DNA from: Escherichia coli
GTDB lineage: Bacteria; Pseudomonadota; Gammaproteobacteria; Enterobacterales; Enterobacteriaceae
Direction: 5' to 3' (one strand)
Length of the DNA stretch: 64,000 nucleotides
Assembly (NCBI RefSeq): GCF_030013595.1
Contig: NZ_CP122768.1
The position numbers are program-made. This document shows, in pieces, positions 16,631 to 19,600 of this stretch. How positions within the stretch are numbered: the stretch's first letter is position 1; every line of letters begins with the position of its first letter.

Positions 16631-19600
16631 TGATGGGCGGTATTCTGAAACGGCGATTGTCGTGAGAACAAAATGGTTGCACCAGAATACAGATATAAAA
16701 AAACCGACATGACAGTCGGTTTTTTTATTTTTTCCGCCCAAGACTTGGTGGTTCCGGGCAGAAATGAAACAGTCCTCATCTAGCAAGTGAATTATAAGTC
16801 AGGATGCCTACATATTCAAACAGCTATGTTGGCGATACAATCCCGACGCTAGTAGTGATACTGCCTCAAGGGATTACCGCAGTGCGGAAAAGTACTTTTA
16901 AGTCCTGGTCAGGATACAGGTGGTGCTGATTCTGGTGCTCTAATTTGGAGAGAGGCAGTCCTCATCTAGCACATGAAGAAAATCATAGTTACAGGCAACG
17001 TAAGGGTAAGCTGTGATTGTCTTTCTCCCTTAAGGGAGCAACGGATGAAAACTTTTCTCGATAAAGTTCTCATCGTTCTTAAGGCGCTAATCGCGCTGCT
17101 GGAACTGATCCGTCAGTTTATTGAATAACTGAGGAAACGTAGCTAAGGCCGAAGGTTTACCACCTTCGGCCTTTAAAAAAACCGACATGACAGTTGGTTT
17201 CATATTTATTGCCAAAATGCACACTGTTCATGCCAGATGCGGCGTAAACGCCTTATCCGGCCTACACAATCTTGCAAAATCAATATATTGCACGCTCTTC
17301 GTAGGCCTGATAAGCGTAGCGCATCAGGCAATCTAACACCTGTCATCACCCCGCAAACTGCCTGAACAGCGCCTTACCCTTAACCAGTCGCGCGCCCAGC
17401 CAGCCGCCGCAAAGCGACAGCAGCAGCGCACCGCTGCACGGCAGAACAATCCACAATCGCCAGTCTGGCTCCCACGGAAAATCAAACACTTTCGCCTGCA
17501 ACACTGCCAGCGCCGTTTCCGCACCAATTGCGGCCACCAGGCCAGAAACAAACCCGAGCATGGCGAACTCACACCACAACGTGGTACGCAGCAGTTTTTT
17601 CCCCGCACCGAGTGTGCGCCACACCACCAGCTCCTGATGACGCTGACGCATTCCCACCTGCACCTGTGCCAGCAACAGCAACATACCGCAGGCGGTGACC
17701 AGCACCACCATCACCTCCAGCGCCCGACTTACCTGCTCCAGCACCTGACCGACCTGTTTTAAAATCGCGCCAATGTCTAACAGGCTAATGGTAGGGAACT
17801 GGCGGTTGAGTTGCGTCAACATGCCGTTGCCATTCTCCCAGCGGAAACTGGTAAGCCAGCTCTGCGGTTGCCCGTCTAATGCCCCTTCCGGGAAAATAAA
17901 ATAGAAATTAGGCCGCAGACTTTCCCAGTCCACTTTGCGCAGGCTGGTCACTTTAGCGCGGAACTCCTGGGTATCGCCCATAAAGGTGACTGTATCGCCG
18001 AGGCCAACGTTTAAGCGTTTCGCCAGCCCCTCTTCCATCGACACTTCATCGGCTTTTGGCGGCCAGTTACCGGCGACAATCGGATTATGATCGGGCCGCG
18101 TATTTTGCCAGGTAAGATTAAGTTCGCGATTGAGCGCCTCATCTTCATTGCCTTCTGTCGGCTTGCCGTTAATCGCCGTCAGTCTCGCCCGCACCACCGG
18201 ATAAAATGATTCCGGGACTATCTGATGTTCCGCGAGGAACGCTTTTAGCGGTGCTACCTGTTCTGTGGCGATGTTGATTAAAAAGTAGTTCGGGCTTTCT
18301 GGCGGTAGCTGCTGTTGCCAGCGGTCGAGCAGATCGCCACGCAATACCAGCAACAGCGCCAGCAGCATAAAGGAGAGCGAAAATGCCGAAAGCTGGCTTA
18401 ACGTTGACCACGGCTGACGTAACAGGCGGCTAACCGCCAGGCGCAGAGGCAGCGATTTCAGCGTCATGCGGCGAAGTACATTCAGCAGCATGCTGCCACC
18501 CATTAATCCGGCGAGCAGCACCACAACCACCACACTGACAATCGGCAGATAAAACTTCAGCGGCCAGACGTTCGCTACCACATCATTACGTAATACGCGT
18601 AAAGGCTGCGTTGCCAGCAACAAGCGGTATGGTCGTAGCCCCACCAGCAGCGAGATAACCGTCATGGTGCCCAGCGCCCATAGCCACGGCCAGAGGCTGG
18701 CTGGCGGTAGTGCAGCAGGCAGAACGGGCTTGAGCAGCACCATCAACACGTTTTCGAACAACAGGCCTATCGCCCCGCCGGTAACGGCTGAAAGCGCCAG
18801 CACCATCAACCACTGACCGACGATTAGCTTACGCAGTTGCGCTCGCCCTGCCCCCAGCGTTTTGAGGATCGCCACCAGATCGTAGCGACTGCGACAGTAA
18901 TGATTCATCGCCACCGCCACCGCTGCCACTGCCAGCAGCAAGGTCAGAAGCGCCGAAAGCAGCAGGAACTGTTGCGAGCGTTCCATCGAGCGCCCCAGCG
19001 CGCCTTCGTCCTGTTCCAGACCGTACCAGCGTTGTTCGGGTTTAAGCTGGGGTAACAACCATTTCTCATAGCCGTCGAGCTGGTTCTCGTTGCCGCCGAA
19101 TTTATAGCGCCAGGTGACCCGACTTCCCGGCTGCACGGCTCCGGTTTTATCGACATCCGCCAGATTCATCATCAGACGCGGAGCCATCTGGAAGGGGTTA
19201 AAACCGGAATCCGGTTCCTGAATCACTTCTCCGGCAATCCGCAAGGTGGCATCACCCACGTCGATGGTGTCGCCTGTTTTCAGGTTAAGCAGTGCCATCA
19301 GGCGTGGGGCCAGCAATACGCTGCCCGCCTGCGGTTTCAGGCCAGGGGGATTAGTTTGCAGATCGCCATACATCGGGTAGATATCATCCACCGCTTTGAC
19401 GTTCGCCAGCTGCGGTGTGTCGCCTGCAAATGTCATGGTGGCGAAAGTCAGCTGCTTGCCGACTTTCAGGCCGCGCTTTTGCGCTTCCTCCAGCCACGCT
19501 TGCGGCACTTCGCGCGAACTGCGCAACGCCCGATCGCCCGCCATAAACTCCCGGCTTTGCTGGCTTAAGCCCTTCTCCATGCGATCGCTGATATTGCCCA

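Follow-up and report, generated by a model that had tools for sequence, protein, structure and literature searches.

The dinQ/agrAB locus of Escherichia coli K-12 is a described type I toxin-antitoxin system (PMC3567139), and a related family of dinQ-like (dql) genes, 14 sequences of which have been published, is widespread in the chromosomes and plasmids of Enterobacteriaceae, where it is sometimes found beside dinQ itself (PMC5066626). The family has a recognizable layout: the small RNA (sRNA) is encoded 5' of the toxin messenger RNA (mRNA), divergent from it and without overlap, and shows extended complementarity to the 5' untranslated region (5' UTR) of the latter (PMC8594479). Here we study a stretch of 64,000 nucleotides of an E. 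coli genome (contig NZ_CP122768.1; the whole stretch is referred to as the window), and in it the interval that separates mnmH from ybbP, where K-12 carries the rhsD island. Our analysis makes it very probable that this gap is a polymorphic insertion hot spot, and that the window carries there, instead of rhsD, a cassette of the dinQ/agrB type, a type I toxin-antitoxin module of which two near-identical hairpins form the ends.

The cassette (Table 1) starts 47 nt to the left of the left hairpin, H1, and finishes 17 nt to the right of the right hairpin, H2. It is colinear with the agrA-dinQ segment of K-12, with which it shares the stem of the terminator (AAAAAAACCGAC/GTCGGTTTTT), the body of the sRNA, the 5' UTR (AAGTCCTGGTCAG...), the target of the antisense RNA, the Shine-Dalgarno sequence (SD), the open reading frame (ORF) and the G+C-rich terminator T1. 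On its minus strand, the AgrB-like sRNA is itself colinear with K-12 agrA/agrB, and a promoter-like site ends 7-8 nt upstream of where the Rfam alignment begins. On the plus strand, alignment to the -10 hexamer of K-12 dinQ places that of the cassette at 16836-16841 (TACAAT), and the toxin ORF, which begins with ATG, is preceded by the SD AAGGGAG (17032-17038). The 27-aa peptide is recognized by the NCBIfam model of DinQ toxins, on which the K-12 DinQ used as a control scores 54.0 bits, and stays below the cut-off of the DqlB model (24.5 bits versus 35). The cassette also shows the family layout described above, through the direct repeat D2 and through the energy of the predicted duplex between the AgrB-like sRNA and the mRNA: at -73.8 kcal/mol, it lies about 6.7 standard deviations below the -45.3 +/- 4.3 kcal/mol obtained with 200 shuffles of the sRNA. 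In RefSeq genomes the ORF at this position is labelled dinQ by PGAP; in the records examined, the AgrB-like sRNA carries no annotation. The 27-aa toxin is also contained in a longer in-frame ORF (16973-17128, plus strand; MKKIIVTGNV...), which at 51 aa is the largest lying wholly inside the interval. Dql peptides are frequently mis-annotated with N-terminal extensions (PMC5066626), and the position of the SD favours the ATG at 17045 over the start of the 51-aa frame.

Table 1. Features of the mnmH-ybbP region, in window coordinates.
Feature	Coordinates	Strand	Description
mnmH (selU/ybbB), left flank	15539-16633	+	364-aa ORF; named mnmH in a strain 100% identical over window 16300-17700
mnmH-ybbP intergenic interval	16634-17345		712 bp between ORF ends (mnmH 16633, ybbP 17346)
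Cassette	16648-17217		570 bp; present here, missing from the empty allele; empty junction ATTCTG/TGCAC, boundary within 2 bp at most
H1, left hairpin (core 16703-16720)	16695-16728		Inverted repeat I2; perfect 14-bp stem, A7 and T7 flanks
AgrB-like antisense sRNA (antitoxin)	16695-16783	-	Rfam RF02891 AgrB, 53.6 bits (gathering 40), E=5.9e-8, full model 1-84
D2, left copy	16770-16791		Complement is the 5' end of the AgrB-like RNA; 20/22 identical to 16956-16977
Promoter-like site of the AgrB-like sRNA	16791-16819	-	TTGAAT-17-TATAAT, 10/12 versus sigma-70 consensus; consensus match only
dinQ-like (dql) toxin mRNA, putative	16848-17175	+	About 330 nt; alignment with K-12 dinQ; transcript ends inferred
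D2, right copy, predicted antisense target in the toxin mRNA 5' UTR	16956-16977	+	Homologous to the agrB target in K-12 dinQ
27-aa DinQ-like toxin ORF	17045-17128	+	MKTFLDKVLIVLKALIALLELIRQFIE; NCBIfam NF041472 toxin_DinQ, 40.9 bits (cut-off 30)
T1, G+C-rich toxin mRNA terminator	17145-17173	+	Inverted repeat I7; 12-bp perfect stem, -20.7 kcal/mol; position equivalent to the K-12 dinQ terminator
H2, right hairpin (core 17181-17198)	17174-17200		D1 repeat; second, slightly degenerate AgrB-type terminator, right end of the cassette
REP pair (BIME-like), outside the cassette	17224-17330 (approx.)		Inverted repeat I4; two inverted REP-like units
ybbP, right flank	17346-19694	-	782 aa here versus 804 aa in K-12

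Taken from left to right, these elements suggest how the module would work. H1 would end the minus-strand AgrB-like antisense RNA, whose body and promoter come next. From a divergent promoter, an mRNA of some 330 nt would be produced, with the sRNA-complementary site in its 5' UTR and encoding a 27-aa hydrophobic DinQ-like peptide; it would stop at its own terminator, T1, beyond which H2 repeats the AgrB-type terminator. By analogy with dinQ/agrB, pairing of the sRNA with the toxin mRNA would block translation or trigger cleavage, so that a membrane-depolarising peptide would be kept off. H1 is called a Rho-independent terminator on both strands by the terminator scan (-16.4 and -17.5 kcal/mol), and both the Rfam AgrB model and K-12 agrA/agrB have a terminator stem that aligns with it. 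This putative bidirectional terminator of the AgrB-like sRNA on the minus strand should also end mnmH on the plus strand, since the palindrome is perfect and has A and T runs on either side.

The closest described relative is the dinQ-agrAB locus that K-12 carries between gor and arsR. It has the same layout, with a divergent and non-overlapping sRNA whose complementarity comes from a direct DNA repeat, and the 5' UTR, SD region, 27-aa peptide and terminator are homologous, as is the AgrB terminator stem, which is the same in both. The two loci nevertheless differ in several respects. Nucleotide identity is about 70%; the cassette has one agr gene where K-12 has two; its toxin starts with ATG instead of GTG; and it carries past the toxin terminator an extra AgrB-type hairpin, H2, for which alignment with K-12 dinQ revealed no counterpart downstream of that gene. 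Unlike K-12 dinQ, it also lacks a LexA operator: there is no CTG-N10-CAG in 16634-17345, and the LexA box of K-12 dinQ aligns to a gapped, non-matching stretch of the cassette, which argues for a dinQ-like (dql) gene rather than a true dinQ. Finally, the cassette sits at a different chromosomal site and is found in 24% of genomes, whereas the canonical dinQ locus has matches in 5415 of 5426. Strains with the cassette carry both loci, with two matching places per genome.

The dql genes dqlA and dqlB (Kristiansen et al. 2016, PMC5066626) resemble the cassette in being dinQ homologues in which the 5' UTR and the signature residues are conserved, and in co-occurring with true dinQ in one strain. 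The peptide of the cassette differs from theirs in that it scores as DinQ and not as DqlB in NCBIfam, and plasmid copies of dql are only about 68-72% identical, aligning over window positions 16896-17183, the mRNA half. As an observation on the plasmid side of the family, dinQ/dqlB-like toxin genes are present on 1669 PLSDB records, 1464 of them predicted conjugative, from Escherichia, Klebsiella, Salmonella, Enterobacter, Citrobacter, Serratia and Erwinia. A closer plasmid donor of the whole cassette was considered and rejected, the matches of at least 99% being confined to three megabase-sized E. coli PLSDB records that are probably chromosomal.

The distribution of alleles across 5426 complete E. 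coli genomes shows how variable the gap is. The K-12-type ybbP-rhsD junction is the commonest state (2869 genomes, 53%) and is missing from the other 47%; the dinQ-like cassette is found in 1327 genomes (24.5%), an island encoding an Hcp-fused type VI secretion system (T6SS) effector (tssD plus three DUF2931 genes) in 572 (10.5%), and an empty junction in 549 (10%). Together these four states account for 98% of the genomes. Among the 1327 genomes with a cassette match, 1314 cover at least 80% of the query, and the arrangement of the window interval is found over at least 80% of its length in 1317 of the 5426. Identity of the cassette is 99% or higher in nearly all cases; it occurs on chromosomes only, at a median of one place per genome and a maximum of two, and its carriers include strains HS, 042 and APEC O78. 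Two recurrent variants look like decay products, and both keep the AgrB-like gene intact. In one (L004), a 98-bp deletion between 10-nt AGTYCTCATC repeats, equivalent to window positions 16967-17064, takes out the antisense target, the SD and the start codon; among 40 cassette matches sampled at even spacing, about 5 show it. In the other (L009), a 70-bp deletion (equivalent to about 17108-17177) removes the 3' end of the ORF together with T1 and creates a 73-aa 'hypothetical protein'.

The Hcp island deserves a separate description as the third cargo of this site. It encodes a 666-668-aa Hcp (tssD)-fused effector and two or three DUF2931 genes, and we found it in E. coli JJ1886 (L010, 9832-13834) and in E. 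whittamii (L013, 1140-4467), the figure of 572 being the count of JJ1886-type junctions. Alleles with this island have the final codons of mnmH replaced.

In K-12 MG1655 (NC_000913.3), the gap is filled by an island of 7.3 kb, in the order ybbP, rhsD, ybbC, ylbH', ybbD', ylbI', ylbG, selU (mnmH). A first-pass annotation of the window had placed rhsD in this interval in K-12, had reported it missing here between mnmH and ybbP, and had described instead a gap of about 700 bp with two near-identical hairpins and a cluster of repetitive extragenic palindromic (REP) sequences. All of this holds. The annotation of NC_000913.3 has rhsD at that place; a tblastn search with K-12 RhsD (1426 aa, E<=1e-3) returned no RhsD homologue in the whole 64-kb window; the gap measures 712 bp; and the hairpin cores stand at exactly the positions given, ACCGACATGACAGTCGGT at 16703-16720 and ACCGACATGACAGTTGGT at 17181-17198. 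The REP cluster is an inverted repeat with partial Rfam matches to the REP-derived families naRNA4 and ES036, of the kind known as a bacterial interspersed mosaic element (BIME), and it is multi-copy in every genome, which is why a query including it matches E. coli genomes at a median of 30 places, and the cassette alone at one.

The K-12 RhsD element thus resembles the cassette in occupying the mnmH-ybbP interval as an alternative allele and in carrying a toxin as an accessory element. It differs in size, as an island of 7.3 kb, and in content, which comprises an Rhs protein of 1426 aa, immunity genes, orphan fragments and an insertion sequence (IS)-like remnant, and it has no sequence in common with the interval studied here. 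Similarity of K-12 to the window ends at about 16635, 2 bp past the stop codon of mnmH, beyond which K-12 is weakly similar to the empty allele for at most some 10 nt, and restarts at about 17340, some 6 bp before the stop codon of ybbP. Alignment of the rhsD flanks against the hairpins, the check that had been proposed, hence puts them outside both. The ybbP-rhsD spacer of K-12 consists of 430 bp of unrelated A+T-rich sequence, and neither low-stringency blastn (word size 7) nor reading by eye found a hairpin, cassette or REP remnant at the K-12 rhsD junctions. The arrival of the island in K-12 would have replaced the entire intergenic region, REPs included. On the mnmH side, the border of the K-12 island is ylbG (L001, 12646-13132: ylbG plus 115 bp adjoining selU), which, from its sequence, looks like the helix-turn-helix-containing N-terminal remnant of an IS-type transposase; before it stands what may be a terminal repeat, TGTATTAGTCGCGAC... 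Were this reading correct, the junction would have been shaped by an IS event and not by the Rhs element.

Empty alleles join ATTCTG straight to TGCAC, in gaps of 140 bp (L003), 240 bp (L007) and 58 bp (L008), and E. albertii (L014) has the same junction; all four lack 16648-17217, and hence both hairpins. Since this outgroup shares the empty junction, and since the adjacency of mnmH and ybbP reaches Citrobacter, Kosakonia and Buttiauxella, we infer an ancestral empty state, into which the cassette was inserted. Inspection of the cassette ends by eye found no terminal inverted repeat and no target-site duplication, with at most a 2-bp TG ambiguity. The REP pair is kept in empty as well as in solo-hairpin alleles (L003, L006, L012, L014). 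As a separate observation, the 58-bp 'empty' allele of E. coli A26 (L008, 835-892) has no REP and contains a hairpin, AAAGCCGTTTAT...ATAAACGGCTTT, that otherwise adjoins ybbP in the Hcp-effector allele, which suggests that it arose by deletion of the Hcp-effector island.

The solo-hairpin alleles probably tell of loss. The two hairpins belong to a direct-repeat family, D1 (16696-16735 and 17174-17213), with a spacing of 478 bp and 83% identity over 40 nt; the repeat proper is formed by the first 27 nt (16696-16722 and 17174-17200), which are identical at 26 of 27 positions, and judging from its length, so good a match in 712 bp greatly exceeds what chance would give. Through repeats of this kind the cassette could be lost precisely, with a single hybrid hairpin remaining. 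This is what is seen in strain LR-28 (L006), where the gap is 234 bp, exactly 712 - 478, and consists of the left flank of H1, a single hybrid hairpin with the right arm of H2, and then the right flank of H2, as would be expected if the hairpin copies had undergone recombination or slippage. The 234-bp alleles are in this respect comparable to solo long terminal repeats (LTRs), in which one hybrid repeat likewise keeps the outer flanks of both copies. They differ from them in that the repeats are here terminator hairpins of only 27 nt, and may have arisen by RecA-dependent recombination or by replication slippage. In E. coli, such an allele is seen in LR-28, and no more than about a dozen others of the 5426 genomes can carry one; a solo hairpin with a perfect stem is also present in the representative of a divergent Escherichia species (L012), the flanks of which are about 6-8% divergent.

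Two other histories of the hairpins have to be weighed against an insertion that brought both of them as its ends. For the first-pass annotation, they could mark either the edges of a small cassette or the empty site of the Rhs insertion, that is, a target or attachment sequence that had been duplicated at the place where Rhs sits in K-12. The former part stands, as the two lie at either end of the 570-bp segment that empty alleles lack. The latter we consider very improbable: it is true that rhsD occupies the interval in K-12, and that the K-12 break on the mnmH side falls within about 10 nt of the left junction of the cassette, but the hairpins, the cassette and the REPs are all gone from both K-12 junctions, so that the hairpins do not mark an Rhs site. 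Moreover, the true empty alleles (549 genomes plus E. albertii) have neither hairpin, the stem is that of an AgrB-family terminator, and the mnmH-side junction of K-12 is an IS-like remnant. In the other history, the solo hairpin would be the older state, a native bidirectional terminator separating mnmH and ybbP, which are convergent, and it was duplicated when a 478-bp agr-dql unit integrated into it, for instance from a circular or tandem donor with that same terminator. A Campbell-type integration would yield exactly two direct-repeat copies, the perfect-stem solo allele of L012 comes from a divergent lineage, and solo alleles do keep the flanking stretches, 47 nt on one side of the hairpin and 17 nt on the other. 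Yet the stem is identical to the K-12 agrA/agrB terminators, which makes the hairpin itself agr-derived, and the whole 92-nt solo segment is missing from the outgroup E. albertii and from 549 E. coli genomes; for these reasons the hairpin-first order is unlikely. The rarity of solo alleles next to 1327 genomes with the cassette is, besides, the pattern that sporadic deletions would give.

The nature of H2 raises another question, namely whether it is a passive duplicate or is maintained by selection, as an insulator or terminator against read-through from ybbP into the antisense strand of the toxin gene. Its position, exactly between ybbP with the REPs and the toxin terminator, would suit this role, and on the minus strand its stem is followed by seven T residues. 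However, that stem contains an A.C mismatch, the hairpin is absent from the predicted minimum-energy fold of the minus strand, and the terminator scan lists H2 on the plus strand only, where it forms 8 bp including one G.U pair (-8.5 kcal/mol) with an interrupted T tail. We regard selection for insulation as doubtful, and it would be compatible with the insertion of a hairpin-bounded cassette rather than an alternative to it. As to the origin of H2, a truncated second agr gene was also considered, and was found unconvincing since only 7 of 13 further T-rich positions match past the hairpin. Going further, the hairpin-bounded agr-dql unit could be a small mobile module, moving into and out of intergenic sites by recombination at its own terminator hairpin, and the mnmH-ybbP gap could be a dedicated exchange site for three unrelated and mutually exclusive toxin cargos (the Rhs island, the Hcp-fused T6SS effector island and the type I toxin cassette). 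What is seen is the four alleles and the solo-hairpin derivative, and we find this proposal improbable.

Several points weigh against the interpretation that we favour, that of a functional toxin-antitoxin cassette inserted with its two hairpins into an ancestrally empty gap. What it does, in terms of transcripts, toxicity and termination, rests on homology. H2 is predicted to be a weak terminator on both strands, and so may have no function. For the presence of the same terminator at both ends of the cassette, capture from a tandem array is only a guess. The perfect stem of the solo hairpin in L012 also fits another order of events, with a hairpin that came first and the 478-bp unit inserted later. 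Lastly, the missing LexA box makes the 'damage-inducible' label doubtful, and probably wrong, for this copy.

The surroundings of the gap are otherwise ordinary, with the gene order allA, allS, mnmH, the 712-bp gap, ybbP, ybbA and tesA. In ybbP, an in-frame 66-bp deletion near 18491, between short MLL repeats, removes WAVLAGAVVLALLCGVLGWMLL (K-12 residues about 402-423). None of the 12 complete genomes that match best has it, the strain identical over 16300-17700 being among them; in all 12 the corresponding segment is 247 bp, against 181 bp in the window.

The absence of rhsD belongs to the ordinary strain-to-strain variation of the accessory genome, and the cassette that we describe belongs to a type I toxin-antitoxin family that is already known; RefSeq already labels the toxin gene dinQ. 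To this our analysis adds minor details, namely the hairpin-bounded architecture, the solo-hairpin and toxin-deleted derivatives and the absent LexA box, whose importance is slight beyond annotation. The locus does offer, in its empty, cassette, toxin-deleted and solo-hairpin states, a clean natural series for studying the gain and loss of chromosomal type I toxin-antitoxin modules.

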